A stretch of 64,000 bases of DNA from assembly GCA_041662525.1 (NCBI GenBank), contig JBAZSF010000001.1:105383-169382 (forward strand). The letters are read 5' to 3'. This DNA is from Minisyncoccota bacterium (GTDB lineage: Bacteria; Patescibacteriota; Minisyncoccia; Phycocordibacterales; UBA9973). Below are positions 4,453 to 39,579 of this stretch, one piece after another; position 1 is the stretch's first letter; each line of letters opens with the position of its first letter. The position numbers were made by a program, and so were the translations under genes. Under the pieces are notes generated by a model. It made no database searches and had not been told where the DNA came from. It saw only the letters and a list, made by a program, of their open reading frames with translations.

Positions 4453-5571
4453 TTAAATACCTTCTTTTTTAAGTTCTTCTATAATTTCTCTTGATTTGCG
4501 AGAAAGTTTTGATGGTAATTTGATGTTTAATTTTATTAATAAATCCCCTCTTTTGTTTTTTGCAAAAGGTACTCCTTTGCCACGCACACGTAAAATTTCA
4601 TTTATGGAAACTCCTTCTGGAATCGTTACTTCTATTTCTCCATCTAAAGTTTGGATAGGATATTTAACTCCGAGCAAGGCATCAGAAAGTTTTAAATTTA
4701 AATTCATTACTAGATCATTTCCCTCTCGTTTAAACACAGGATGCGGAGCTACATTTATTTTTATATAAAGATCTCCTGTGGTTCCTTTTGAAACTGCTTC
4801 ACCATAACCCGTCATCCGAATCATCTCACCATCACGGATGCCTGCAGGGATAGCAATAGAAACTTCTTCTTCGCGACGAAGCACTCCTTTGCCTTTGCAT
4901 TTATCACAAATTTCTTTTGGTACTTCACCTGCACCTAAACAAACTTCACAGATTTTTGTACTAGCAATATTGCCAAAAATTGTTCTTTTAGATTCACGAA
5001 TTTTCCCCTGACCATTGCAATGTTTGCAGGTTTCCATTTTAGTTCCAGCTTTCGCACCAGAGCCTCCACATGTCTGACATGTGGAAGTTTTAGTAATTAA
5101 AACTTTTCTAGTTATACCAAAAATAGAATCAGCAAAAGAAATCTGAATCTCGGTGGAAATATCTCTTCCTCGACGTGTTTCTTGTCTTCCTCCTCCCATT
5201 CCACCGCCGAAAAAATCACTAAAAATATCATTGAGATTACCCATATCAAAATCTGCCCCACCGTTTTGGAAACCTGAAAAGTCAAAACCTCCGAAACCTC
5301 CTTGCTGTTGTCCTCCACCATACCCTCCTTGTTGCCCCATATTTTCAAAACCTGATCCATACTGATCATATTTTGAGCGTTTAGTATCATCAGAAAGTAC
5401 TTGATAAGCTTCATTTGCTTGTTTAAATTTTGCTTCATTACCATCTTTTTTATCAGGATGATATTTTTGCGCCAACTTATAAAAAGCCTTCTTTATTTCT
5501 TCTTTGGAGGCAGTTTTATTTACACCTAAAATGTTATAATAGTCTTTGTTCATATGATTTTGCAAAATCAT
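4453..5571 (-). CDS. dnaJ: Chaperone DnaJ (Hsp40)
   Basis: J-domain '[32 protein letters not shown]', Gly/Phe-rich linker, four CxxCxGxG zinc-finger repeats. Only 39 nt downstream of ATPase-1 on the same strand. Confidence 0.95.
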
Positions 5572-5610: not shown

Positions 5611-7113
5611 TTATATCATAGGTTCGGCCTCTTGTGAAGTTTTAGTTTTTATTTCAGAATCATCTTCTTTACTCTCTCCTTCCTCACTTGTTTCTTTTGA
5701 TTTTCTTTTAGCTCTTCCTTCAATAATCGCTTTTTCTTCTGCACTTCGAATAATAGTAGCTTCTTCTTCAGCAATGAGTTTCGCCGCATCACCTTTTGGT
5801 ATTGAATATTTCCTACGAGACGATGCTATAACCTCCTCTCTATAAGATGGATGTGTGGGTGGTAGAATTCGTAGAGTTTCCGCAGAAAATGGATCATAGG
5901 ATTCACCATCAATAGTCATTTTAATATAAAATTCTCCAACTGCGAGATTGATCATGTCTTTCACATCAAAAAGTGGCGCAAATTCTGGTTTCATTTTAAC
6001 TGCATCTTCACCACCAATACGAAAAGTAATAACACTTCCACAATTACCAAGCACGGCTTGATGAATTTTAGGTAAAATTTGCCCGACATACTGATGCGCC
6101 ATGGTTAAATTCAGCGCATATTTTCTCGCCTCTGATAAAATATTTTCAAAAGTCTGAGTAACTACATTTTGAAACTCATCTACGTATAAATAAAAGTCTG
6201 TACGATCTTTTTCTGGGATAGCGGCACGCTCCATGCCGGCTTGTTTTATTTTTGTCAAAAACATGGAACCAAGAAATGAAGAATTCTCTTCCCCCAGACG
6301 GCCCTTGGAAAGATTAATTAAAATAATTTTTTGTTCATTCATCAATTTACTAATATCAATCTTATTTTGCTTTTGTCCAAAAATATTTCGAAGCAATGGA
6401 TCAGATAAAAATTGCCCAAGCTTATTTACAAGCGGAATGATCGCGTCAGTGTCGAATTTCTCAGACCAATCAGCGAATTCAATAGCGAAGAATCTTTTAA
6501 CCATGTCATCTGTAATATATTCCACCACCTTCTGTCTGTAATTTCTGTCGGTCAACATTGAGATCATTCCTCGCATCGTAGCGTGCGGATAGTCGAGCAG
6601 GGCCAAACAAGTAAAACGAAAAACGTGTTCTAGGCGTGGTGTCCAGTTTGCTCCGAATTGTTTTTGAAAAACTTCGATCAATCCCTGTGTTAATTGAAAT
6701 TTAAATAATGGATCAACATTTGCTAAAGGATTGAAAGAAGCTGGGAAATCTAAATCTGTAGGGTCGATAATGCAAACATCTTCGATACGTTCTTTTGGGA
6801 TATAATCAAGAATTGCGTTTATTTCATCTCCGTGCGGATCAATCAAACAGATACCATGACCATAGGTAATATCTTGACGCATAAAAAGCTCAAGTAATTT
6901 ACTTTTTCCAACACCGGACTTTCCAATAATATAAAGATGCCTTCGGCGATCTACTCTTTTAATACCAAAAACAAATTTCTTTTCTTCTAATGAAGCGACA
7001 TAATTTGTTCGCCCAATAAAAGAAGCGTCCTCAGGGTTAACTTTACCAAAAACTGGTAATTCTGGTGGTGGTGGTCCGTATTTTATTATTTGCACTCGAT
7101 TCAGCTTGGACAT
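5611..7113 (-). CDS. Soluble TrwB/TraD/VirD4-like (type IV coupling protein family) P-loop ATPase, paralog 1, no TM anchor
   Basis: Walker A 'IGKSGVGKS', then 'LIDPHGDE...IIDPTD' (compare remembered TrwB 'GATGTGKS..VIVDPNGD..IILNPYD'), Walker B 'DFYLYVDEFQNV', 'TMAHQYVGQ'. No N-terminal hydrophobic helices; acidic Ser/Glu-rich C-terminal tail. Confidence 0.65.
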   Translation of the reverse strand: MSKLNRVQIIKYGPPPPELPVFGKVNPEDASFIGRTNYVASLEEKKFVFGIKRVDRRRHLYIIGKSGVGKSKLLELFMRQDITYGHGICLIDPHGDEINAILDYIPKERIEDVCIIDPTDLDFPASFNPLANVDPLFKFQLTQGLIEVFQKQFGANWTPRLEHVFRFTCLALLDYPHATMRGMISMLTDRNYRQKVVEYITDDMVKRFFAIEFADWSEKFDTDAIIPLVNKLGQFLSDPLLRNIFGQKQNKIDISKLMNEQKIILINLSKGRLGEENSSFLGSMFLTKIKQAGMERAAIPEKDRTDFYLYVDEFQNVVTQTFENILSEARKYALNLTMAHQYVGQILPKIHQAVLGNCGSVITFRIGGEDAVKMKPEFAPLFDVKDMINLAVGEFYIKMTIDGESYDPFSAETLRILPPTHPSYREEVIASSRRKYSIPKGDAAKLIAEEEATIIRSAEEKAIIEGRAKRKSKETSEEGESKEDDSEIKTKTSQEAEPMI

Positions 7114-7137: not shown

Positions 7138-8889
7138 CTAGTAAACCTCTTGCTGATAACATTTTTCGCAATACACTATTTCAGGGCGATCGGGAGCATA
7201 GCTCGTCTCAAACTCTATCTCGCACTTACTTGCTCCATGAGAATGATTTGGTTTAGTACACATACAAGACCTATGCCAGAGTTTCATAGGATTACGCATT
7301 TTCAACCTATTTTCATGACGACACAAAAAACATAACCTAGGTAAAGGTACTCCAAGTTTTCGATATAAATTTAATTCATCTATAGTAATTTTATAAGCCC
7401 CTCTACAATAATTACTGAATTTTCCTTTATTTCCACATCCAATAATTTCTTTTGTAATAGAATTTTTAACATCATCTAAATTATCAGGAAAATTTTTTGA
7501 TTCAATTGTTGTTTTATATTCATTTCCTGATCTTTCACGCCATCGATATCCCATTTTAAGTGCCTGTTCCTTCTCTATGGGAAAATAATCTTGTGCCTGA
7601 GTTTCATTGTAGCAAAAAGTAGAAAGTTCACTGGGAAAAAATTCTCCATATTTGTATATAATTCCTCTCTTGTCCACATAGGGTACTTCATTCATTTGTT
7701 CTTTGATTTTTGGAATTAATTTTTCATATTCTTCTTTAAAGTATTGTTTGTTTAAAATACAATATTTTTTATTTCGCACACCAATACAACCAAATAAATT
7801 TGAAGACCCGTGGCAATTAAAAGAATACTCAATATCATTTGAACCATAGATCACACTGCCAAAAAGATTGCGAAAACCGCCTATTCCTGTATCAAATACC
7901 TCATAAAGCATTTCGCCTTCCCCTACTCCAGGCCCAGAATCATAAGCATCTTTAAGACTTTTTACTGACCAATGTGAATATTTTGAATCTTCAATTTGTC
8001 CATTTGCATCAAAACAAATTTTGCAATTTTTTGTACCTTCTAAGTTATCACCTGTTGAATTTACCACCTTTATTTGAACAGCAAAGCGATGCAATGAATT
8101 AAGATATAATTCTTTAAACTTATTTTTAAGTTCTAAAATAGTTTTATAATCTTTAAGATTATATTCAGCTAATTTTCTGTGATATTCTTCCCTAGAAAGC
8201 TGTTCATTCCACATGCAATATGATTTATTGCGCAAATTAGTACAACCAAAACAATCTGTGCATCCTACGCAATCATAAAGAAAATATGAATCTACGCAAC
8301 TTTTACAATTCAGAGAATAAAGTAAATGATAACTGTCCGAACAAATTACATCTTCATAACAAAGCTCAGAACGATTGACAACATATAAATCTGCAGAATC
8401 TTTTGTCCCGGTAATTCTATTAGAATACAAAGTTCTTTCTATTCTCCATGAACCAGAACACATATAGCAGTCCTTGCTAGCTTCTGCGATATTACAATAA
8501 TCGCTATTTGTTGCATTTACATTTGAAAGGGCTTGGAGGGGAATATTATTTCTTAAATTTTTCCACTGTTCAAAAAAAGGTTTAGAAAAATCATATTCTT
8601 TGCCATAAGAAAGCGGATCCCAGCCATCTCCCCACCAAGCATCAGCACAATACACAGTAAGTTTTTCTTCTGGAGGTAAAAAAGAAATAAGCATTTCGTC
8701 ATGACCTGGCGCATCACATTTTCTTTTGAACAAAGACATCTCGTTACGCCAAGTTATACGTCTGATAGTTCTGCATTCCGGACAAAAAGTCGGAGGTGGA
8801 ACTTTCATCTTTTTATAAAAGTTAAAATCCTCTAGTTCGATGACAAAGTCTTGTTTACAATTTTGGCAATTTTTAGTTTCAGAATTCAT
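7138..8889 (-). CDS. Cysteine-rich (~33 Cys) internally duplicated zinc-ribbon protein, paralog 1 of a 3-member family of unknown function
   Basis: 583 aa. N-terminal ribbon 'CQNCKQDF..FNFYKKMKVPPPTFCPECR' and homologous C-terminal module 'LNLYRKLGVPLPRLCFLCR'. Two central Cys clusters each ending 'CFGC..LRNK.YC..N.Q.S.EEY'. Start is 1 nt after the ATPase-2 stop. Confidence 0.6.
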   Translation of the reverse strand: MNSETKNCQNCKQDFVIELEDFNFYKKMKVPPPTFCPECRTIRRITWRNEMSLFKRKCDAPGHDEMLISFLPPEEKLTVYCADAWWGDGWDPLSYGKEYDFSKPFFEQWKNLRNNIPLQALSNVNATNSDYCNIAEASKDCYMCSGSWRIERTLYSNRITGTKDSADLYVVNRSELCYEDVICSDSYHLLYSLNCKSCVDSYFLYDCVGCTDCFGCTNLRNKSYCMWNEQLSREEYHRKLAEYNLKDYKTILELKNKFKELYLNSLHRFAVQIKVVNSTGDNLEGTKNCKICFDANGQIEDSKYSHWSVKSLKDAYDSGPGVGEGEMLYEVFDTGIGGFRNLFGSVIYGSNDIEYSFNCHGSSNLFGCIGVRNKKYCILNKQYFKEEYEKLIPKIKEQMNEVPYVDKRGIIYKYGEFFPSELSTFCYNETQAQDYFPIEKEQALKMGYRWRERSGNEYKTTIESKNFPDNLDDVKNSITKEIIGCGNKGKFSNYCRGAYKITIDELNLYRKLGVPLPRLCFLCRHENRLKMRNPMKLWHRSCMCTKPNHSHGASKCEIEFETSYAPDRPEIVYCEKCYQQEVY

Positions 8890-8890
8890 G

Positions 8891-10894
8891 CTATTCCAAA
8901 ATTTTTCTTAAAACATCTTCGGGAACTTCCTTTGTTGCTGGTTTTTGAGGTATAGGAGTTGCCGAAGGTGAAGCCGTAGGTCCTGAGTTTGTCGAAGGAG
9001 TGATTTTTTCCTCAATCAAATCTTTTAATTTATTCATATCTTCTGCTGTGGCTGCACGATCTACGCCTATTGGACGAGCAGGTTTTTTTACTTCTTGCAT
9101 TTTATTTTTTAAAGAATCGAGCGAAATAGGAGTTGGGGTTGAAATAGGTGCTGGGGTAGATTTAGCTTCTACCACTACTTTATTTAAAACATCCTTTAAT
9201 GCTGAGGTATCCCTATTTATTGGATAAGTTGACTTGGGCCTGACTGGATAAGTAGGTGTAGGTTTAATTGGGGCTGGTTTGGTAAATACTTTTTTAAAAG
9301 TCTTAATTATTCCAGCAGGTTTTACAGGGGCGGTAGTTTGTTGAAATTCGATACCTAAATCAGCTAGTGGTTTATAAAATTTAGATTCATCATATTTGAT
9401 TTGATCTTGTCCCCTTTTTTCCACCTTTACTTCTCCGGATTTTATTTTTGCAATACATTCTTTACAATAAGCTGCTCGGCCCGGCTCAGGTTTAAAGGGC
9501 ACTGTTTTTTCTAGTTTACAAAGCGAACAAATTACTGGAAATTTTTCTATATTTCCATTGGTAGTATATGTATCACTACCTAATGACATTCCGCTCCATT
9601 CATTAATTTCTCGCTCCACTACCTCCCTAGACCTACAATAAATGGCACGGGAAGATTGTATTACTGCTTCTTCTATTTTTTTATCCCCAGACTTTACCAT
9701 GGGTGGTAAAGTCTTAGCGGAGAATGGACGGGATGTCACACCATCAATCATTAACTTTAAATAAATTTTATAGTTCGGCAAATTAACAATATCTCCCGGA
9801 GTAAATTCTGGATCAAATTCTTTTTCCAAAAAGTCTGCATCGTCCGAACCAACTCTAAAAACTATCATTGTACCTACGTTACCAAAGACAGCATCACGCA
9901 CCGCAGAGCTTTTATCCACCACGAGCTGTGCAGTATACTGATGCGCCACAGTTAGATTTAGTCTGTACTTTCTAGCTTCAGACAAAATACCAGCAAAAGC
10001 ATCTGTCACAAAGTTTTGGAATTCGTCCACATAGAGATAAAAATCTTTTCGATGTTCTTCGGGAATACGCACGCGTTCCATGGCGGCAAGTTGAATCTTA
10101 GTAATGATCATCCCACCCAAAAGCCCAGAATTGTCTTCACCGATGCGTCCTTTGGAAACGTTCACTAGAAATATCTTCCCATCATTCATAATATCAAAAA
10201 TATTAATAGTACTTTTAGATTGACCGACTACGTTTCGAATAATAGAAGTAGAAAGAAATTGTCCGACTTTATTTTGAATCGGAGCGATAGCTTCATTGCG
10301 AAATTTGTCTTGCCAAGCTTCATATTCATGCACCCAAAAAGCTTTGATCACGGGATCTTTTAAATTAGCAATTATTTTTTGACGATAATCCTTGTCCACC
10401 AGCATTCTAGGGATTCCCAAAAGCGTCGTCCCGGGAGTATCTAGCAATGCTAAAATACAATTATTCAAAATGTATTCCATTCGAGCACTCCAAGCATTCG
10501 CCCAGATTTTAGTAAAAATACCCATGAGTCCAGACGCCACTAAATGTTTATATTGCGGATCAATTAATTCTAAAACATTAAAACCAATATGGTAGTCCAC
10601 ATCTGCGGGATTAAAATAAACTACGTCTTTCATGCGCTCCGGCGGAATAGCAGACAAAACTCCTTCGACGAGTTCCCCGTGCGGATCAACCACACAAACA
10701 CCTTCACCGTTCTGAATATTCTGAATGATCATATTAAACATCAATACAGATTTACCCGAACCAGATTTTCCAAGAATATAAACATGCTGACGTCTGTCCT
10801 TGCGCTTGATACCAAAGAGCTGATTTTTATCACGAAAAGTTGTGAGCCCAAGATAAGTAATTTCTCTATTTATAGGTATTTCTGGAAGTTCCAT
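8891..10894 (-). CDS. Soluble TrwB/VirD4-like P-loop ATPase, paralog 2, with C-terminal CxxC..CxxC zinc ribbon and Pro/Thr-rich tail
   Basis: 'ILGKSGSGKS', 'VVDPHGE', 'FYLYVDEFQNFV', 'TVAHQY'. C-terminal 'CSLCKLEKTVPFKPEPGRAAYCKECI' followed by a P/T/S-rich low-complexity region (~230 aa). Confidence 0.65.
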   Translation of the reverse strand: MELPEIPINREITYLGLTTFRDKNQLFGIKRKDRRQHVYILGKSGSGKSVLMFNMIIQNIQNGEGVCVVDPHGELVEGVLSAIPPERMKDVVYFNPADVDYHIGFNVLELIDPQYKHLVASGLMGIFTKIWANAWSARMEYILNNCILALLDTPGTTLLGIPRMLVDKDYRQKIIANLKDPVIKAFWVHEYEAWQDKFRNEAIAPIQNKVGQFLSTSIIRNVVGQSKSTINIFDIMNDGKIFLVNVSKGRIGEDNSGLLGGMIITKIQLAAMERVRIPEEHRKDFYLYVDEFQNFVTDAFAGILSEARKYRLNLTVAHQYTAQLVVDKSSAVRDAVFGNVGTMIVFRVGSDDADFLEKEFDPEFTPGDIVNLPNYKIYLKLMIDGVTSRPFSAKTLPPMVKSGDKKIEEAVIQSSRAIYCRSREVVEREINEWSGMSLGSDTYTTNGNIEKFPVICSLCKLEKTVPFKPEPGRAAYCKECIAKIKSGEVKVEKRGQDQIKYDESKFYKPLADLGIEFQQTTAPVKPAGIIKTFKKVFTKPAPIKPTPTYPVRPKSTYPINRDTSALKDVLNKVVVEAKSTPAPISTPTPISLDSLKNKMQEVKKPARPIGVDRAATAEDMNKLKDLIEEKITPSTNSGPTASPSATPIPQKPATKEVPEDVLRKILE

Positions 10895-10928
10895 ATAGTA
10901 TATATTTTACAACAAAATCACAAAAACA

Positions 10929-10950
10929 AAAAGCCCCTTATGGGGCTTTT
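10929..10950. terminator. Rho-independent terminator downstream of dnaK (minus-strand sense)
   Basis: Hairpin aaagcccc-ttat-ggggcttt; on the minus strand it is followed by a T-run. Confidence 0.6.
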
Positions 10951-11043
10951 CAAAAAATTTAGAAAATAATTTTTTTGAACGGTCTGGCTGGGGTGGGACC
11001 CAGAGAACCGAGGACCTGAGAAAAAATTGATTTTCTAAATTTT

Positions 11044-12948
11044 TTACACCTTTGGTTCTTCGCCTTCGGGACCTTTTTCTTTAAATTCTGCGTCATGAAC
11101 TTCGGCTGGTTGTTCTTCAGGGGCACTAGCGGGAGGAGTTTCTGCTCCAGCTTTCGCCATCGCTTCCCCTATTTTTGACATTTCGGCAGAAAGCTCTTCG
11201 GTGGCTTTTTTAATTCCCTCACCATCAGTGCCATCTTTAACACCTCGCAAAGCAGTTATCTTTGCATTTACTTCATCTTTTAATTCTACAGGGATTTTTG
11301 CTTCATTATCCTTAAGAGCTTTTTCAGCAGTATAAATAATCATTTCTGCTGTATTTTTTACTTCTGCGTTCTCTTTTTTCTTCTTATCTTCCTCTGCGTG
11401 AAGCTCTGCATCAGCTTGCATTTTTTTGATATCTTCTTCTTTGAGTCCAGAGCTTGCTTCAATTTTAATTGATTGAGTTTTACCTGAGGCTTTATCTTTT
11501 GCGGAAACATTTAAGATTCCATTCACATCCACATCAAAAGCAACTTCAATCTGAGGCATCCCGCGAGGTGCTGGTGGAACTCCATCTAAAATAAATCGGC
11601 CGAGAGATTTATTGTCGGACGCCATAGGACGTTCTCCTTGCACGATGTGTATTTCAACAGAAGTCTGATTGTCTGCAGCGGTAGAAAATGTTTGAGACTT
11701 GCTTGATGGGATAGTGGTATTTCTTTCAATCAATTTTGTAGCCACTCCTCCTAAGGTTTCAATACCTAAAGATAGCGGTATTACATCAAGCAGTAAAACA
11801 TCTCGCACATCACCTTGTAACACGCCTGCCTGAACAGCTGCACCGAGTGCTACTACTTCGTCAGGATTAATGGACATATTTGGAGCTTTGCCGAAAAGTT
11901 CTTGCACTGCAGAAACTATCGCTGGCATTCTAGTCTGACCACCCACCATAATAATTTCATTAATTTCATTAATTTTAAATGGAGATGCGTCTAAAGCTCT
12001 TTTGGTAATCTTGATAGAAAGATCAATATACTCTTTGGCTAAAGATTCCAACATCGCTCGAGACATTTTTAGCAATAAATGTTTCGGCCCAGAAGCATCC
12101 GAAGTAATAAACGGAATATTTATTTCAGTTTCTGTCGTAGTGGAAAGTTCATGTTTAGCTTTTTCTGCAGCTTCTTTTAATCTTTGATGCGCTAGAGGGT
12201 CTTTGATCACATCAATACCAGACTCTTTTTTATACTCTTCAGCGATCCAAGAAATTATTTTTCTATCAATATCTCCTCCACCCATATGACTATCCCCATC
12301 AGTAGATTTAACTTCTATCACATCATCGCCTATTTCCAGCACAGACACGTCAAAGGTTCCCCCACCGAAATCGTAGACAACAATCTTTTCATTTTTCTTT
12401 TTATTGAATCCATAAGCAAGCGCAGCAGCAGTCGGCTCATTAATAATACGCTTCACATCCAGACCAGCAATTGCTCCTGCATCTTTGGTAGCTTTTCTTT
12501 GCGCATCATTAAAATATGCTGGTACGGTTATTATCGCTTCAGTAATTTTTTCTCCCAATTTCGCCTCAACATCAGCTTTTATTTTTTGCAAAGTCATTGC
12601 GGAAATTTCTTCTGGTCGATAAAATTTATCTGACATTTTTATTTTTACACCACCTCCTTCTCCTGCTTCAATTTTAAAAGATGCTGTCTCTCGATCTTTT
12701 TGCACTTCCGGATCATCAAATCGATGCCCCATATAACGCTTGATTTCAGCAATGGTATTTTCTGGATTTGTGACCGCTTGTCTTTTTGCAAGAAGACCGA
12801 CAATACGATCTCCATTTTTTGCAGTTGCCACGACAGAAGGTGTCGTACGATTACCTTCCACATTTTCTACTATCTTTGGTGCGCCACCTTCAATGATAGC
12901 GACTGCTGAATTTGTTGTACCTAAATCTATACCTATTATTTTTGACAT
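11044..12948 (-). CDS. dnaK: Chaperone DnaK (Hsp70)
   Basis: '[13 protein letters not shown]', '[10 protein letters not shown]', 634 aa, acidic C-terminus. Confidence 0.97.
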
Positions 12949-13047
12949 ATATTTTATAAGGTTAATTTATAATTTTTAATAATTTTACTAATATTTCGCG
13001 ACCACTAAAAACTTGTATAAACAGAGTATATATGATAGGATGCTTGC

Positions 13048-13563
13048 ATGTCAAGTAATAAAGATTATTCTAATAAAATACTTAAAATTTTAGGTAGAAA
13101 AAATGCTGTTTCTTTGCCAGAACTAAAAGAAAAAATTACTGGAGAAAAATATGCAATCACACGCTGTCTAAAAAATCTTAAAAATTCTGGATTGATAGAA
13201 CAAATACCCTCCCCACAAAATAATTATGCTCGCCTGACAAAACTTGGAAGAAAAAAAATGCATAGTTTAGAGTTGGATAGTGACACAACTCTTGTAAACA
13301 CTTCTTGGGATGGATTTTGGAGAATTATTCTACTTGATCTGCCTGAAAACAGAAAAAATGAACGGGAGTCTCTACGTTACCTTCTTAAAAAGGCTGGCTT
13401 CGTATGTCTAAAAAATTCCGCTTGGATATCCCCATTCCCCTTTGAACATTTATTTACGAATATTAAAAAAGACCTAGGACTTACCACTGAGATAATGATT
13501 ATCGTCACCGAAAATATAGATGAGGAAAGCAAAAAAGTTTTATTTGAAACTTTTGGAAAATAA
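13048..13563 (+). CDS. Short PaaX-like winged-helix transcriptional regulator
   Basis: N-terminal wHTH; C-terminal 'WDGFWRIILLDLPENRKNERESLRYLLKKAGFVCLKNSAWISP' matches the PaaX C-domain pattern 'WDG.W.lv.fd.pe..r..R..lr..L...Gf..l...vw..P'. Confidence 0.5.
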   Translation: MSSNKDYSNKILKILGRKNAVSLPELKEKITGEKYAITRCLKNLKNSGLIEQIPSPQNNYARLTKLGRKKMHSLELDSDTTLVNTSWDGFWRIILLDLPENRKNERESLRYLLKKAGFVCLKNSAWISPFPFEHLFTNIKKDLGLTTEIMIIVTENIDEESKKVLFETFGK

Positions 13564-13626: not shown

Positions 13627-15351
13627 CTAATAAATTTCTTGTTGATAACAACGTTCACAGTAAACTATTTCTGGTCGATCTGGCGCGTAACTAGTCTCAA
13701 ATTCTACTTCACATTTTTGTGTGCCATGTATGTGATTTTTTTTATCACACATACATTGCCTACGAAAAAAAAGAGGTAAATTTCGTAAGGTTAAACGTTC
13801 ATAATGCCGACAATTAATGCAAAAACGCGGTAATGGAAGATTCATTCTTTTTAAAAAATCAAGTTCTGATTTGATTATGCGAAAAGCCCCGGTGCATTCG
13901 TGTTCACAAGACTCATCGTGTGCACATTGAATAGCCTGATTAAGTATGTCATCACTTACATCATTGATATTATCTAAGATGTCTTTATTTTTTAAAGTAA
14001 ATTTATAATTTTGTTTTGTAGTTTCGTACCACGAAAACCCTTTCCTCTTTGCATCTTCTTTACCCAATGGAAAAAATTCGTAAGCAGTAGTTGCTTTGTA
14101 TGGAAAAAAAGAAAATTCACTTGGGAAAAATTCTCCATATTCTTTTGCTTGTTTCATATGTTCAATTATTTTGGGCACTAATTTTACATATTCTTCTTTT
14201 GTGTACTGTTTATTAAAAATACAATATTGCTTATTTCGAAGCGAAACACATCCAAAAAGATCTGATGAATTACTGCAAAAAACACAATAAGTTAAATTTT
14301 TTACATTTGTATAACAATAAGCACTAAATTTTATATTTGATCCCCCATTTCCAACAATAAGACTTTCGTAAATAAGTTCTACATTTTCTCCATAATTTGA
14401 ATAATCATAGCAATCCTTTACAGGTCCCATTAAAATATTTTGGACAAATTTGCTATCTTCCACCATCCTTACACGAAAACAATATTTTGCATTCTTAGAC
14501 CCATAAACATAATCACCAGAAACATTCACATTTTGACGATCGTGAATATATTTTTGCGGGTAATCAAGCCAATGTTTATATACCTCATCTTTTAATACTC
14601 TTAAGGCTTTATTAGAACCTAAATTTAATTCTTTAATATTTTTTAAATAATCTTCTCTAGAATATTGTTTATTAAAAATGCAATATGATTTATTGCGAAG
14701 ATTAATTGAACCAAAACAACTATTGCATCCAATACAATCTTTACACAAAATCATTTCCTGACAACTCTCACAATCAACAGAAAAAAATGTTTTATAACAA
14801 GCTGTAGTATTAATATTTCCATAACTCAATTCACATTGATTTGTCATATGGCTATCAAAGCATTGTTTAGAACCCTTATCCCAAATTAAATATGCAGAAT
14901 CTTCCGCATAAGAGACTCCTCCTCGAACCAAATAACAATTTTTTACATCATGCACATTAGTGCAATAGTAACAATTCACTAAATTATACATAGAATGCGC
15001 AGGTAGTGGCACCCTTAAAAGTAAACTTTTAAACTGTTCGAAAAATGTTTTTGTAAAATCAAAATCACGAGCATACTCAAGTGGATTCCAGGCATCAGAA
15101 ATCCAATAATCTCGATCATATATTTTATAAGGACTTTCTTCGGGAAAAAGTGAAAAAATTTCTTTTCCACCAAGAGCTTCCTTTTTCTTAAATAAATGCC
15201 AATCATTACGCCAGGCCATTCTTCGCTGCATCCTGCATTCCGGACAAAAAGTAGGCGGAGGTACTTTTATCTTTTCATAAAAATTAAAATCCTCCGGCTC
15301 TATGACAAATTCTTTCTTACAATTTTGGCAATTTTTTGTTTCAGATTTCAT
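13627..15351 (-). CDS. Cysteine-rich internally duplicated zinc-ribbon protein, paralog 2
   Basis: 574 aa. First ~45 and last ~30 residues are almost identical to paralog 1 ('MKSETKNCQNCKKEFVIEPEDFNFYEKIKVPPPTFCPECR' and 'KCEVEFETSYAPDRPEIVYCERCYQQEIY'); middle region divergent. Confidence 0.6.
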   Translation of the reverse strand: MKSETKNCQNCKKEFVIEPEDFNFYEKIKVPPPTFCPECRMQRRMAWRNDWHLFKKKEALGGKEIFSLFPEESPYKIYDRDYWISDAWNPLEYARDFDFTKTFFEQFKSLLLRVPLPAHSMYNLVNCYYCTNVHDVKNCYLVRGGVSYAEDSAYLIWDKGSKQCFDSHMTNQCELSYGNINTTACYKTFFSVDCESCQEMILCKDCIGCNSCFGSINLRNKSYCIFNKQYSREDYLKNIKELNLGSNKALRVLKDEVYKHWLDYPQKYIHDRQNVNVSGDYVYGSKNAKYCFRVRMVEDSKFVQNILMGPVKDCYDYSNYGENVELIYESLIVGNGGSNIKFSAYCYTNVKNLTYCVFCSNSSDLFGCVSLRNKQYCIFNKQYTKEEYVKLVPKIIEHMKQAKEYGEFFPSEFSFFPYKATTAYEFFPLGKEDAKRKGFSWYETTKQNYKFTLKNKDILDNINDVSDDILNQAIQCAHDESCEHECTGAFRIIKSELDFLKRMNLPLPRFCINCRHYERLTLRNLPLFFRRQCMCDKKNHIHGTQKCEVEFETSYAPDRPEIVYCERCYQQEIY

Positions 15352-15361
15352 AATCTTACCT

Positions 15362-15406
15362 TTTCCCCTTCTTCCCCTTCACCAGGTGAAGGGGAAGAAG
15401 GGGAAA
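15362..15406. repeat. 45-bp perfect palindrome (22-bp arms, 1-nt centre), GC-rich, between Cys-rich paralogs 3 and 2
   Basis: tttccccttcttccccttcacc a ggtgaaggggaagaaggggaaa, read directly; the two arms are exact reverse complements. Confidence 0.9.
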
Positions 15407-15408
15407 CT

Positions 15409-17097
15409 TTAATTTATATTTTGCTTGTAACATTCTTCACAGGCGATTTTTTGATATCCCCATTCTGGTAAATAATACGCTTCAATATCTTTTTTACAAT
15501 AAAAACATTTATATGAATACGCTTGCAAAACAGTTAAATATTTTAAACTATTTTTTATTCTCACATCAAAATGATAACGCGGGAGCGGTATATTATTTTC
15601 TTTATAAAAAGAAAGTTCATTTTGGGCAATATTAAAACGCCAACCTGTTTCTGGGCATAAAAGTGCCTGAGTGATAATAGTATCCGAAACATCTTTCACA
15701 TCATCAGGAAGTTCGTTTGTAGGCATCCCATCTGTCTGACCTTCTGTTGTATCTTCCCAATAACCACCAATCTTTAGCATATCTTCTTTTTTTGTGTTTG
15801 GAAAATAAAAAAACCCAGTAGAGAAATTAAATGGTCCAAGACTCATGGAATAAGGCAAAAATTTTCCATACTCACCTCTTTTTTTCATATCAGAAATAAT
15901 CTCATCCCGTAATTTTTCATATTCCTCTTTAGAATACTGCTTATTTAAAATACAATATTTCTTTTTCCTCAAACCCACACAACCAAAACAATATTCACAC
16001 TCAATACATAAATCTAAATATTCGGAATATCTAGAAGAAGACCAGCTAGAATATTTGAGAGCATAACCGCTGGGTTGGCAAGAACTACAATTCCCTGATA
16101 TTTCTAAATCCTGACAGCCGGTAATATCAATACAAGATTCCAATCCTCTACCCCTAATACAATTAGAACAATCTTCGGATTCTGAAATCGTAAAACAATT
16201 ATGACAATTTTTACAATCCAATAAATAATCTCCAAAAGAATTATGAACTTTTAAATTAAAATTAGGTCTATGCACTACTTCTTCTTGAACTATTTCTTCA
16301 AAATGTTTTTTATGCTTTTGGATAGAATCATAGGAACCAAGTTGAAATGATTTGATTTTTTTATCATATTCTTCTTTGGAGTATTGAACATTTTCTATGC
16401 AAAAAGATTTATTGCGAAGATTCCAGCACATAAAACAATCCTGACAATTCCGACAGTCATATAAAAAGTAAGAATTTATGCAATCTCGAGAATGTTTAGA
16501 GTAAAAAAGTTTATAAGAATGATGGCACTCAGAAGAGTCAAAACATTTTTCACTATTGTAACAAACTATCACATCAATAGAATTTTTTACATTGATGTTT
16601 CTATATGAATAAAATAAGTTTTCACAATCCACCATAGAACGTGAAAGATAACTATCTTTACAACTCCAAACATCATCGCACCAATCACATCCTGTGCTTT
16701 TACTACCATCTTGATGCGGACGAGGCACTTTTTCTTGGAGATTTTTTAATTGCTCAAAAAATGTTTTTTTCTCATCGTAATCTTCTCCATAATTCATTGC
16801 ATCCCATTTATCGCTGTACCATTCAGAAAGAGTGTAGATTGGATATCTGCTATTCTCCGGCAAAACTGTAATCAAACTTTCTCCAGAAAGATCAGATTTA
16901 CCTTTGCGAAATTTTCCAAATACCCAAAAAGACAAGTGCAATTTTACCCGACAGAAAAAACAAAGTGTCGGCAACTCTATATCAACTTTTTTATATAAAG
17001 ATAATTCTCCTTCTGTAATTAAAAAATTATTTCCACAATGCTCACAAATATTAGTTTGTTGGTTCTTTGTATTCATATACATTGACCCTCGCGGCAC
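15409..17097 (-). CDS. Cysteine-rich internally duplicated zinc-ribbon protein, paralog 3 (most divergent; start codon ambiguous, overlaps grpE 3' end)
   Basis: 562 aa. N-terminal 'CEHCGNNFLITEGELSLYKKVDIELPTLCFFCR', central 'CRNCQDCFMCWNLRNKSFC', 'CFGCVGLRKKKYCILNKQYSKEEY', C-terminal 'CFYCKK...CEECYKQ'. Alternative starts: MYMNT at 17082 or MNT at 17076. Confidence 0.55.
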   Translation of the reverse strand: MPRGSMYMNTKNQQTNICEHCGNNFLITEGELSLYKKVDIELPTLCFFCRVKLHLSFWVFGKFRKGKSDLSGESLITVLPENSRYPIYTLSEWYSDKWDAMNYGEDYDEKKTFFEQLKNLQEKVPRPHQDGSKSTGCDWCDDVWSCKDSYLSRSMVDCENLFYSYRNINVKNSIDVIVCYNSEKCFDSSECHHSYKLFYSKHSRDCINSYFLYDCRNCQDCFMCWNLRNKSFCIENVQYSKEEYDKKIKSFQLGSYDSIQKHKKHFEEIVQEEVVHRPNFNLKVHNSFGDYLLDCKNCHNCFTISESEDCSNCIRGRGLESCIDITGCQDLEISGNCSSCQPSGYALKYSSWSSSRYSEYLDLCIECEYCFGCVGLRKKKYCILNKQYSKEEYEKLRDEIISDMKKRGEYGKFLPYSMSLGPFNFSTGFFYFPNTKKEDMLKIGGYWEDTTEGQTDGMPTNELPDDVKDVSDTIITQALLCPETGWRFNIAQNELSFYKENNIPLPRYHFDVRIKNSLKYLTVLQAYSYKCFYCKKDIEAYYLPEWGYQKIACEECYKQNIN

Positions 17098-17671
17098 GGA
17101 TTACGCGTTCGCCTAGTTTATAGCCTTTTTGAATCACATTTGCGATAGTATGATCTTGTTCTTTTTTATTTGTTTCTACCATATCAATAGACTGATGAAT
17201 ATTGGGATCAAAACTCTCCCCCGTCTCCCCTATTGTTTTTACTCCGTATTCTTCAAAAATGGTATTCATCTGAGCGTAAATATATTCCACGCCTTTTCGC
17301 CAGTTTTCATCCACCTTTTCCCAAGCTTCCTTGTTCGCAAAAGCCATATTAAAACTATCAATCACAGAAAGAAAACGAGTTAAAATTCTCTCTCGCATCG
17401 CTTCTGAAAAAAGTGCTTTTCTATCTTCTTCCTGCTTACGATAATTAACAAAATCTGCTCGCTCTTTCTGCCAGCCAGTTAAATATTCTTCTTTTTCGGC
17501 TTTGCACACTTTTAGATCAGCTCTAAATTTCTTTAAAGTTTTCTTTAAATCTTCTTCTCCGTCTTCGTTAAATTCAAACTCTAAAACCTCAGACGAGTCA
17601 ACAGACTCGTCCCGAGCAGCCTCGAGGGAATCTTTTATTTCGGTATCAATTTTCTTTTCTTCATCTGACAT
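17051..17671 (-). CDS. grpE: Nucleotide exchange factor GrpE
   Basis: 206 aa, acidic N-terminus, coiled-coil 'FRADLKVCKAEKEEYLTGWQKERADFVNYRKQ', C-terminal beta domain 'ANVIQKGYKLGERVIRAARV'. Confidence 0.85.
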   Translation of the reverse strand: MSDEEKKIDTEIKDSLEAARDESVDSSEVLEFEFNEDGEEDLKKTLKKFRADLKVCKAEKEEYLTGWQKERADFVNYRKQEEDRKALFSEAMRERILTRFLSVIDSFNMAFANKEAWEKVDENWRKGVEYIYAQMNTIFEEYGVKTIGETGESFDPNIHQSIDMVETNKKEQDHTIANVIQKGYKLGERVIRAARVNVYEYKEPTN

Positions 17672-36846: not shown

Positions 36847-39579
36847 TTAAACCGAAGATCGAGATCGCACACGAATTGAGCTTTTTATTTTTCTTGCCCG
36901 TCCTCCGGCGGGGCCTTTTTTTGTTTCAACAACAATTTCGTTATTTTTCTCAGAAACAAATACAGTGTCCCCTTTGGATACTTTGTTTGAAATAATATAA
37001 GACGCAACTGAATTCAAAATCTTATTCTGAATCAAACGGTTCAGTGGTCTCGCTCCATAATGTGGGTTATATCCTTCTTTTGCTAAATAAGAAAGTGCTC
37101 CATCAGAAATCTCAAAATTTATTCCTTTGGCTTTCAGACGATCAACTACAACCTTGATACGCAAATTGACTATTTCTTTTAGAGCAATTTCCGACAAAAC
37201 ATCAAAGACAATAATCTCATCTAAGCGATTCAAAAATTCTGGACGAAAATTATCTTTTAACGCTTCTGTCACTTTTTCTTTCATACTACCATAATCTTGT
37301 TTTTGAGAATTATTAGAAAATCCAATTGATTCCATCTTTTCTACAAATTGTGAACCGATATTAGAAGTCAAAATTATAATAGTATTTTTGAAATTTACTA
37401 CTCTTCCTTTACCATCAGTCAGTCGCCCTTCATCAATAACCTGCAGAAGCATGTTAAAAACTTCTGGATGAGCTTTTTCAATTTCATCAAAGAGAATCAC
37501 CGCATATGGACGATGCCGAACAGCTTCAGTCAATTGACCAGCCTCATCGTATCCCACATATCCTGGCGGAGACCCAATGAGCTTGGACATAGAATGTCTC
37601 TCTGTATATTCAGACATATCCACCCGAATAATCGCACTCTCATCATTAAACATAAATTGCCCAAGTGCCTTTGTGAGTTCAGTCTTACCGACACCTGATG
37701 GACCTAGAAAAATAAAAGAACCGATTGGTCGATTTGGATCTCCGATACCAGCACGAGAACGACGAATAACATCAGCCACGCGCCCGATAGCAGCGTCCTG
37801 ACCCACCACTCTCTTTTTTAGTTCAACCTCCATCTTTTCAAGCTTTTCACGTTCTTCTTCAAGCATCTTTGTGAGTGGTATTCCCGTCCAACGAGCCACC
37901 ACCTCGGCGATATCTTCAGCAGTGATTTCTTCTTTTAAAATTCTACGAGATTTTTGCAATTTCTTTAATCGTGCGAGTTTTATATCGAGCTCTTTCTGAA
38001 GGGTAGGTATTTTCCCATAACGTAATTCAGCAGCTAAAGTAAGATCCGCTTTCATTTCTGCATCTTCGGCTTCCAAACGAATACTTTCGAGTTCTTTCTT
38101 AATACCTCTGATTTCTAATACGATTGTTTTTTCGTTCTGCCATTTTAATTCCAATTCTTTTGTCTTCTCAGACAAATTACCTATTTCTTTGTCTATTTCT
38201 TTAATTCTATTTTTTATTTCATTATTTTTTCCTTGTACTTTTTCTTTTTGTTTTTCTTCTCCACTCGAAGAACTGATCTCTTTTTTGAGAGCTTCTTTTT
38301 CGATTTCTAAACGCATTGTTTTTTTGTTCGCATCTTCTAAAATCGGTGGCTTATTTTCAAGCATTATCTTTAATGAAGAAGAAGCTTCATCAATCAAGTC
38401 CACAGCTTTGTCTGGTAAAAATCTGTTTGTAATATAACGAGAAGACAGATTGACCGCAGACACGATAGCATCATCAGTAATTCTGATACCATGGAAAAGT
38501 TCATACTTTTCTTTAAGCCCACGAAGAATTGTAATGGTATCTTCTATGCTAGGTTCATCGATATAAACAGGCTGGAAACGGCGTGCTAATGCAGGGTCTT
38601 TCTCAATATGTTTTTGATATTCTCGCAAGGTAGTGGCGCCAATAGCTCGAAGTTCTCCACGAGAAAGCGCTGGCTTCAACATATTTGAAGCATCCATTGT
38701 GCCTTCGGCTCCGCCTGCACCGACAATAGTGTGGATCTCATCAATAAAAAGAATTATTTTTCCAGCAGATCGTTCGATCTCTTTCATAATGCCTTTCAAT
38801 CTTTCTTCAAATTCTCCACGGTATTTTGTACCGGCCACAAGCATTCCTAAATCAAGAGAAACAATTTCTTTATCTTTTAAAGATTCAGGAACATTATTTT
38901 TTGCAATCAATTGGGCTAGCCCTTCCACTACAGCAGTTTTTCCAGTCCCCGCCTCCCCTATCAAAATAGGATTATTTTTTGTTCGACGTGAGAGAATCTG
39001 CATTATGCGAGTGATTTCACTATCCCGACCAATGACTGGATCTAATTTATCTTCTTTAGCCAACTTTGTTAAATTGCGAGTATATTTTACCAATAATTTA
39101 AATTTCTTTGGCTCGGAAACATCTGTGATATTTTGACTACGGAGTTCTCCTAAAACTTTCATTACTTGATCTTTGTGAATCCTAAATCTAGCCAAAGTCT
39201 CACGTGCTTCACTTGTGACTTCGAGAATTGAGATAAAGAGATGTTCTGTTGAAACAAAATCATCTTTCATAAACTCTGCCAGTTTAGCTGACTGTTCTAT
39301 AACTTGTGCTAAATCAGGATTGAGATAAATCTGATACGAAGGTGAGATGGTGCTACGTGCTTCTGGTAATTCAATTAATTCTAAAACAGAATCAGTCAAA
39401 AGCATTGTATCGATTTCCAATTTATCTAAAATAGAGTTCACCATAGATTCCTCTTGTAGTAAAAGTGCACCGAGCAAATGCAATGAAGAAACATGGTTCA
39501 TACCACGTTCGATAGCCAGCTCATGGGCTTTTTTAATGGCATCTTTGGCTTTAGTTGTAAATTTATTTAATGGTGGCAT
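36847..39579 (-). CDS. clpB: ClpB disaggregase (two AAA+ modules with coiled-coil middle domain)
   Basis: Clp-N repeats, Walker A 'GEAGTGKT' and 'GPSGVGKT', long coiled-coil M domain between NBD1 and NBD2, 910 aa. Confidence 0.9.

Follow-up and report, generated by a model that had tools for sequence, protein, structure and literature searches.

The ends of C2, a cysteine-rich protein of 574 residues encoded in a 64,000-nucleotide stretch of a Minisyncoccota genome (GenBank assembly GCA_041662525.1, contig JBAZSF010000001.1; this whole stretch is called the window below), and those of its paralog C1 are very probably zinc-finger domains held by family-wide purifying selection, with gene conversion neither needed nor detectable. 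The ends are near-identical because they are small zinc-finger modules, in which most positions (the four Cys ligands, the core and the helix) are fixed throughout the family. The original prediction, made for the C2 gene, had described near-identical ends around divergent middles and offered concerted evolution or constrained interaction modules as the reason. C2 is 100% identical to the NCBI hypothetical protein WC671_00640 of a Candidatus Paceibacterota metagenome-assembled genome (MAG). The two genes are located as follows.

13627-15351, minus strand: C2, cysteine-rich paralog of 574 aa, the gene named in the original prediction (open reading frame, ORF).
7138-8889, minus strand: C1, cysteine-rich paralog of 583 aa, with its conserved N-terminal end at 8755-8889 and its conserved C-terminal end at 7141-7230.

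Pairwise alignment of C1 and C2 gave an overall identity of 45% at the amino acid level and 58% at the nucleotide level. Counted in C2 numbering, identical residues are distributed as follows.

Residues 1-45, N-terminal end: 36 of 45 identical.
Residues 46-544, middle: 196 of 496 identical.
Residues 545-574 (nt 13630-13719), C-terminal end: 26 of 30 identical.

Both ends differ from the middle (Fisher p of 1.6e-7 for the N-terminal and 3.4e-7 for the C-terminal end), and in a 30-column sliding window identity was not uniform, the terminal windows scoring highest at 0.80-0.83. The gene coordinates and both end motifs quoted in the original prediction were correct as written, and its estimate by eye of ~85% nucleotide identity at the 5' end is close to the measured values, 0.86 for the first 90 nt and 0.81 for 135 nt. 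The middle had been said to retain the Cys framework but little else. The framework is indeed there, with 25 Cys positions common to both proteins (of 33 in C1 and 34 in C2), but so are two conserved islands, at C2 residues ~206-235 (55-60% identity) and ~361-430 (60-70%).

The pair was compared with 80 C2-seeded loci of GTDB species genomes, to which two close relatives carrying orthologs of both C1 and C2 were added (L082, with a C2 ortholog of 83% identity, and L083, with one of 81%). A conservation profile of 212 full-length members from 81 loci peaks at residues 1-45, 206-235, 361-430, 496-525 and 550-574 in C2 numbering, which is the same profile as that of the C1-C2 pair. The ends of C1 and C2 are 0.80-0.87 identical to the family consensus, and in pairs from different genomes with a middle identity of ~40% the ends still average 62-65%. 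The proposal of constrained end modules is supported by this conservation across many genomes, which includes four Cys conserved in 97-99% of members at each end. The pattern of end conservation is in itself ordinary, being domain-level purifying selection on small zinc fingers.

In a rival account, recurrent conversion among paralogs of the same genome overwrites their 5' and 3' ends and keeps these alike, while the middles drift. The co-orientation of C1 and C2 at a distance of only 4.7 kb and the tandem arrays formed by the family would suit it, as would an N-end nucleotide identity of 0.81, the highest among the paralog pairs compared. Synonymous sites speak against it: synonymous divergence (dS) between C1 and C2 amounts to 1.10 for the N-end and 1.40 for the middle and has reached saturation at the C-end (proportion of synonymous differences, pS, >0.75), and is thus similar throughout, whereas nonsynonymous divergence (dN) is 0.12 and 0.10 at the ends against 0.58 in the middle. 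Where C1 and C2 share a residue, the codon is also the same in 23/35 cases at the N-end (0.66), 9/26 at the C-end (0.35) and 123/190 in the middle (0.65); the N-end does not differ from the middle (Fisher p 1.0), and the C-end differs in the direction opposite to conversion (p 0.005). Pooled codon identities at N-end, middle and C-end were 0.65/0.58/0.50 for paralogs of the same genome and 0.63/0.57/0.50 for those of different genomes, making the two kinds of pair indistinguishable. Likewise, among 21,319 pairs compared, the 273 from the same locus showed no excess of end identity over the 21,046 others. Conserved residues of the types K, N, F, Y, E, D and C, with their two-fold, A/T-biased codons, account for the high 5' nucleotide identity, and conversion is therefore not supported.

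The comparison with L082 and L083 leads to the same result. Middle identity separates orthologs (0.83-0.88) from paralogs (~0.40), while end identity lies at 0.69-0.97 for every pair irrespective of relationship, orthologs being no closer at the ends than paralogs. C1-type and C2-type proteins from different genomes are 0.69-0.80 identical at the N-end and 0.87-0.93 at the C-end, compared with 0.80 and 0.87 for the pair from the window, and the same paralog pair within the sister genomes has an N-end identity of 0.69-0.71. The N-end of C2 is 96% identical to that of a member in another genome (L066) and 80% to that of C1. At the nucleotide level, the N-end identity of 0.81 between C1 and C2 compares with 0.78-0.79 for orthologs and 0.72-0.77 for cross-genome paralogs and is equalled across genomes, for example by the pair X_C2-Y_C2 (0.81); at the C-end, the same-genome pair reaches 0.72, lower than the others compared. 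Quartet site patterns at the N-end grouped by orthology at 8 sites, by genome at 5 and in crossed fashion at 3. Conversion is thus largely refuted already, and we consider it scarcely credible as a source of the pattern.

Three points count against purifying selection as the sole explanation. When pairs from different genomes are matched for middle identity, 1.8% and 1.2% of them reach or exceed the end identities of C1 and C2 (0.80 and 0.87), a place within the top 1-2% that also counts in favour of conversion. We put this small excess down to both proteins being close to the consensus and to the particular two orthogroups of this clade. Moreover, the ends are short (135 and 90 nt), giving the quartet and synonymous tests low power, and any conversion that predates synonymous saturation would go unseen.

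Under purifying selection, the plateau of end identity at ~70-93% reflects a few free positions toggling among a small residue set, in the same way for orthologs and paralogs; end identity is alike for all types of pair because only few positions are free. The C1 ortholog in L082 is 88% identical to C1 in the middle, more than in the N-terminal 45 aa (0.76). Turnover is faster than in the body at the finger's few unconstrained positions and at the residues ahead of its first Cys. The middles show a dN/dS of ~0.09-0.12 within orthogroups, which indicates strong purifying selection and contradicts, for the present, the earlier suggestion that they diversify. C1 and C2 are ancient paralogs whose solenoid middles diverged after old duplications to ~40% identity and are now conserved within each orthogroup.

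C1 and C2 share a rigid architecture of seven parts, with two zf_Tbcl-like fingers, a linker, two β-solenoids, an acidic helical region and a zf_Tbcl_2-like finger. In C2 they were delimited by Cys conservation, Pfam and hhalign comparisons and an AlphaFold2 (AF2) model, and are listed here from the N-terminus.

15196-15351, minus strand: zf1, N-terminal treble-clef-type zinc finger with a basic helix (RRxxWRN), aa 1-52 (Cys conservation, Pfam).
15010-15195, minus strand: small α/β linker domain, aa 53-114 (AF2 secondary structure).
14566-15009, minus strand: R1, predicted Cys-rich β-solenoid (12-residue period) followed by a helical hairpin, aa 115-262 (hhalign, AF2).
14146-14565, minus strand: R2, second predicted solenoid-plus-helix unit, aa 263-402 (hhalign, AF2).
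13945-14145, minus strand: conserved acidic helical region (YGEFFPxExSPFxYNET...), aa 403-469 (family conservation 0.6-0.75).
13771-13944, minus strand: zf2, internal duplicate of the N-terminal finger, aa 470-527 (hhalign, Cys conservation).
13630-13770, minus strand: zf3, C-terminal CxxC-x17-CxxC-like finger, aa 528-574 (Cys conservation, hhalign).

In zf1, Cys 8, 11, 36 and 39 are conserved in 97-98% of the 212 members and form two CxxC knuckles that could bind one zinc. The corresponding residues are Cys 476, 486, 511 and 514 in zf2 (88-99%) and Cys 533, 547, 565 and 568 in zf3 (98-99%). The notion of a pair of end modules thus needs to be amended: both are conserved, but they are of two different domain types, and the N-terminal one has a second, internal copy. 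Profile comparison with hhalign showed zf1 and zf2 to be homologous (probability 99.2%, E 8e-20) and R1 and R2 to have arisen by internal duplication (99.9%, E 2e-36). The linker domain carries a family-conserved W/D/F/Q motif at ~residues 83-106, R1 contains the conserved C197, C206, C209, C212 and C215, and R2 ends in the most conserved motif of the family, FGCxxLRxKxYCIxNKQYxKEEY. The conserved KEEY helix that follows R2 also drew a Med15_N/KIX match in 19/62 members, which was discarded as spurious.

The closest relative of zf1 and zf2 is PF13451 zf_Tbcl, a 'probable treble clef domain' formerly described as a putative zinc-ribbon domain, with which they share the spacing CxxC-x24-CxxC and the pattern F-x-I...E-x-x-F-Y...P-x-P-x-x-C-x-x-C-R; the homolog P0055 carries a precomputed zf_Tbcl annotation. 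The isolated zf1 module of C2 scores 23.5 bits (E 5e-5), just below the cutoff of 24, and full proteins score 16-17 bits. PF13451 itself has no established function; what differs here is that the domain caps a 575-aa solenoid protein and is present twice. The C-terminal module resembles PF23477 zf_Tbcl_2/TIGR04272 at 17.2 bits in C2 (E 0.004) and 15.2 bits in C1, both below the cutoff of 27. Only the C-x17-CxxC half of zf3 (C547-x17-C565-x2-C568) is canonical, the first knuckle being split, with C533(-x-C535) and a His-containing insert of 11-13 residues in place of the first CxxC. This module aligns with a bona fide finger of the same class in ATPb, an ATPase encoded nearby (hhalign probability 93%, E 3e-7), which supports a remote relationship between the two. 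Matches to zf_Tbcl (24/62 members at E < 0.1) and zf_Tbcl_2 (8/62) were the only ones to recur meaningfully in the family. In 2.3 Mb of Patescibacteria loci, the finger modules were found only in family members, their fragments and ATPb orthologs. Small CxxC-x17-CxxC proteins of Methanosarcina mazei bind zinc, as measured by inductively coupled plasma mass spectrometry (PMC12704099).

The solenoid body formed by R1 and R2 had no match in Pfam or NCBIfam, and a profile search of PDB sequences gave none at E <= 1. A first AF2 model of C2, built from a shallow alignment of mostly C2 orthologs, placed the solenoids at a predicted local distance difference test (pLDDT) of only 60-70; it had no PDB match, and Foldseek retrieved only finger-sized viral 'zinc-ribbon domain' proteins. 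It was replaced by a model built from 134 diverse sequences, which reached a pLDDT of 92.2 and a predicted TM score (pTM) of 0.91. In this model, R1 and R2 are predicted as regular β-solenoids in which strands recur every 12 residues, and helices follow each of the two. A Foldseek search against the PDB returned only left-handed β-helix proteins (best E 9.7e-4, TM 0.08-0.09, root-mean-square deviation >15 Å). The regular short-strand solenoid is shared by the modelled R1 and R2 with the left-handed β-helix acyltransferases (GlmU, LpxA, LpxD) and the γ-carbonic anhydrases, from which they differ in that members have no Hexapep Pfam match, the strand period is 12 rather than 18 and there is no global superposition. 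The likeness of the modelled units to PDB entries is a generic solenoid resemblance and not membership. The Tenebrio antifreeze protein is a Cys-rich β-helix with a 12-residue repeat, and such Cys-lined helices are called to mind by the period of R1 and R2, whose last turns have a Cys at each third position. Disulfide ladders are unlikely here because the protein is cytoplasmic; neither a signal peptide nor a transmembrane segment was found in C1, C2, the third paralog C3 or the two neighbouring ATPases, ATPa and ATPb.

The family to which these proteins belong is large. A profile search over 1.84 billion representatives (clusters at 50% identity) gave 4,891 matches at E <= 1e-3, of which 2,121 also passed E <= 1e-30, and almost all matches were full-length (550-600 aa). 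The source names seen are all those of Patescibacteria lineages, and members have a mean of 34 Cys. In the records found the family is restricted to Patescibacteria and uncharacterised. A locus can hold up to 9 full-length tandem copies, or ~12 ORFs when fragments are counted, and 239/242 members are co-oriented with the seed gene. Three loci (L041, L059 and L025) contain 9-12 co-oriented family ORFs within ~20 kb, fragments included, and several contigs of the MAG CAZKRG01 (L009, L018 and L020) have 8 or more copies, a large investment for genomes of this size. No NCBIfam family matched the Cys-rich proteins; PADLOC found none among them, and for the ATPases its mad8/HerA P-loop matches were all weak. 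A reading of the locus as a defence system was set aside in view of the strong conservation of the orthologs and the housekeeping context.

C1 and C2 lie within a cluster of chaperone and ATPase genes, whose order on the minus strand is grpE, C3, C2, dnaK, ATPb, C1, ATPa, dnaJ. The other members of the cluster are the following.

4453-5571, minus strand: dnaJ, directly downstream of ATPa (ORF, loci of relatives).
5611-7113, minus strand: ATPa, soluble P-loop ATPase resembling VirD4/TraG/HerA, encoded directly downstream of C1 (Pfam).
8891-10894, minus strand: ATPb, second soluble VirD4-like ATPase, upstream of C1 (Pfam, NCBIfam).
11044-12948, minus strand: dnaK (phmmer orthologs and precomputed Pfam annotation of relatives).
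13048-13563, plus strand: PaaX-like gene between C2 and dnaK (ORF, Pfam).
15409-17076/17097, minus strand: C3, third Cys-rich paralog (ORF).
17051-17671, minus strand: grpE, overlapping the start of C3 (ORF, loci of relatives).

The two-paralog framing of the original prediction holds for the likeness of the C1 and C2 ends, but the window contains three Cys-rich paralogs, with 33 (C1), 34 (C2) and 36 (C3) Cys, and the ends of C3 are only ~27-36% identical to those of the other two. Among C3 orthologs, these ends are conserved (dN 0.12 for the N-end, 0.06 for the C-end). The internal finger of C3 appears to have lost its second CxxC (RYHFDVR). The true start of C3 is probably the ATG at 17076 rather than the GTG at 17097, orthologs starting with MNTKNQQ; from this ATG, the gene still overlaps the end of grpE by 26 nt.

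Both ATPases match domains of type IV coupling proteins above the Pfam cutoffs: ATPa scores 22.7 bits for T4SS-DNA_transf (cutoff 20.1) and 24.6 for DUF87 (cutoff 23.2), and ATPb 39.8 bits for TrwB_AAD_bind (cutoff 20.5) and 30.6 for T4SS-DNA_transf (cutoff 20.1). They thus share the P-loop domain of VirD4, TrwB and TraD (TrwB_AAD_bind, T4SS-DNA_transf and TraG-D_C above cutoffs), from which they differ in having no membrane anchor and in being embedded in an Hsp70 operon. The Walker A motif starts at residue ~64 in ATPa and ~42 in ATPb, the maximal 19-residue Kyte-Doolittle hydropathy is 0.98 and 1.13, respectively, with no N-terminal transmembrane anchor, and scores fell hundreds of bits short of NCBIfam equivalog cutoffs. 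Across diverse Patescibacteria lineages, ATPa keeps an identity of 61-90%. The finger of ATPb, at aa ~444-493 (nt 9416-9565), scores 34.3 bits against zf_Tbcl_2 (cutoff 27) and 37.3 against TIGR04272 (cutoff 36) and is present in more than 50 orthologs. It is followed by a tail of ~170 residues (aa ~494-667, 8891-9415) with a high content of Pro, Thr, Ser and Lys and a low-complexity appearance; ATPb orthologs range from 583 to 833 aa.

The association of the family with these ATPases was counted in two ways. In the loci seeded on the family, 42/49 internal VirD4-like ATPase genes have a member within 600 bp, 40 of them on the same strand. As this sample is subject to ascertainment bias, a further 80 metagenome loci were seeded on ATPa, and the 33 with at least 4 kb on both sides were counted; a member is carried by 28 of these, adjacent in 22, while 24 carry dnaJ and 21 ATPb. 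The recurring core is dnaK-ATPb-(0 to 4 members)-ATPa-dnaJ. In Patescibacteria, genes for type IV secretion systems (T4SSs) occur, only 148/5,713 VirD4 homologues lie near virB4, and the role of the orphan VirD4 homologues, about two per genome, was raised as an open question (PMC12102498). ATPa and ATPb probably are these orphan homologues.

Xanthomonas T4SS effectors share a conserved C-terminal domain, and the combination of constant ends, a variable body and adjacency to VirD4 homologues could likewise suggest that the paralogs are secreted effectors whose end modules act as translocation signals read by the coupling ATPases. The occurrence of T4SSs in Patescibacteria (PMC12102498) also speaks for this reading, but we regard it as very unlikely. 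Neither ATPase has the N-terminal membrane anchor of coupling proteins, the VirD4 homologues seldom lie near virB4, and no T4SS domain, including those of virB4 and relaxase, was found in 10 large ORFs scanned within the window or among the neighbouring genes. Furthermore, the orthologs are under strong purifying selection (dN/dS ~0.1), unlike typical effectors, and three tightly folded fingers with two solenoids would make poor substrates for an unfolding-dependent channel.

The constant fingers would serve as docking modules common to all paralogs, and the paralog-specific solenoids would supply differing binding surfaces. The ATPa/ATPb pair, or a ligand shared with the related finger of ATPb, is the likeliest partner, since ATPb carries that finger and is encoded alongside. 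ATPa is unusually well conserved, and its C-terminus consists of a variable acidic tail followed by an ExEPxI motif with invariant E and P. This end has the look of a docking tip, for which the basic finger helices could act as receptor. That the fingers dock to the ATPases is a tentative proposal, in which we infer the contact from gene context and sequence. Zinc-finger ends under constraint, together with this putative docking, nevertheless form the probable explanation as a whole.

Several observations weigh against parts of it. Both finger matches lie under the curated Pfam cutoffs, and the binding of metal by the ends, as well as any contact with the ATPases, is putative. The divergence of the C3 ends means that the ends are not one universal tag. 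Long tandem arrays occur with no ATPase nearby, and 5/33 ATPase loci have no member within 6 kb.

The fingers may alternatively bind nucleic acid. The ends would then be conserved for this contact and not for one with the ATPases, and the family would comprise DNA or RNA binders that work with DNA-translocase-like ATPases of the FtsK/HerA/VirD4 superfamily, for instance when DNA is taken up or processed. Each zf_Tbcl-like knuckle is followed by a strongly basic helix, in a protein that is acidic overall, the mean net charge being +5.8 for residues 29-57 (zf1 helix) and +5.2 for zf2, compared with -6.2 for residues 384-469 and -4.6 for the whole protein; DNA translocases form the superfamily of which the neighbouring ATPases are part, and the related finger of ATPb could mean a shared ligand. 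Since zf3 is acidic, no recognisable nucleic-acid-binding or nuclease domain was found and the operon context is one of chaperones and ribosomal proteins rather than competence or recombination genes, we judge this alternative unlikely.

The position of the genes inside a grpE-dnaK-dnaJ cluster in this clade, and the high Cys content of members, call to mind a further alternative, namely zinc- or thiol-based stress holdases that would pass clients to DnaK, DnaJ and GrpE with the fingers as redox switches. The model for such a function is Ruc (Rv0991c) of Mycobacterium tuberculosis, a four-Cys zinc-ribbon protein genetically linked to chaperone genes that binds DnaK and promotes refolding when oxidised (PMC7448276). 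Ruc and Hsp33 resemble the paralogs in their Cys4 zinc modules and in linkage to dnaK-dnaJ-grpE, a functional analogy only, as size and fold are very different and the paralogs have no long disordered region. Linkage to dnaK is seen in only part of the range of the family, many members standing in arrays without it, and the link to the ATPases is tighter. Zn_ribbon_8 matched weakly in only 2/62 members, and no Hsp33 Pfam match was found; the large solenoids are predicted to be well folded, unlike the disordered Ruc, and a holdase role would leave the many distinct conserved paralogs unexplained. We therefore consider it quite improbable, less so than secretion and more so than nucleic-acid binding.

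A ClpB/ClpC-type double-AAA+ gene (Clp_N, AAA, AAA_2, ClpB_D2-small) is located at 36847-39579 on the minus strand, ~20 kb from the chaperone cluster, and the idea that the ATPase pair replaces a missing ClpB disaggregase was dropped on this ground. The remaining content of the window is housekeeping (CysRS, AlaRS, MnmA, BipA, GyrA, IF-2 and ribosomal proteins).

The PaaX-like product (13048-13563, plus strand) combines a small winged helix with PaaX_M (Cas2-like). Its gene is divergent from dnaK, and the position is kept in many loci, for example L002, L010, L013, L023, L034, L048, L073 and L081-L083. The best promoter-like site of the region, TTGACA-18-TATACT at 13054-13025 on the minus strand, lies upstream of dnaK (intergenic region 12949-13047). 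Judging from this arrangement, the PaaX-like protein could regulate the chaperone cluster in place of HrcA. Between dnaK and ATPb, a terminator-like hairpin at 10927-10952 on the minus strand (TGAAAAGCCCC ATAA GGGGCTTTTTG, then a T-run) suggests attenuation or a separate ATPb-C1-ATPa-dnaJ transcript. In several of the ATPase-seeded loci, a gene of ~231-240 aa lies on the opposite strand between the last Cys-rich gene and ATPa (L115:5213-5935, L121:4017-4727, L122:5175-5885, L139:5137-5832 and L097:3384-4100).

The 57-nt spacer between C3 and C2 is mostly filled by a perfect GC-rich palindrome at 15363-15405, with a 20-bp stem and a 3-nt loop (TTCCCCTTCTTCCCCTTCACC AGG GGTGAAGGGGAAGAAGGGGAA), in AT-rich surroundings (GC of the window ~0.34). 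The palindrome occurs nowhere else in the window and in none of the 164 fetched loci. At the same position, close relatives carry a whole extra paralog: a fourth one, Cx, of 580-581 aa, lies between the C3 and C2 orthologs at L082:2175-3920 and L083:8212-9954 and is missing from the genome of the window, which indicates a recent loss or gain of a family member in the cluster.

The family is undescribed in the literature searched, large and consistently encoded beside two orphan ATPases. It can take up several genes per locus in otherwise minimal genomes, and its solenoid body has no convincing structural match. Its members are thereby candidate partners for the orphan VirD4-like ATPases of Patescibacteria. 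We put forward, as a possible but doubtful view, that the Cys-rich paralogs are interchangeable adaptors or cargo receptors of a new cytoplasmic machine built on two VirD4-like ATPases and wired into the Hsp70 operon of Paceibacteria-type Patescibacteria. In such a machine, the zinc-finger caps would dock the paralogs to the motor, and each solenoid body would recognise a different client. If true, this would explain what thousands of orphan 'coupling protein' homologues in Patescibacteria do.

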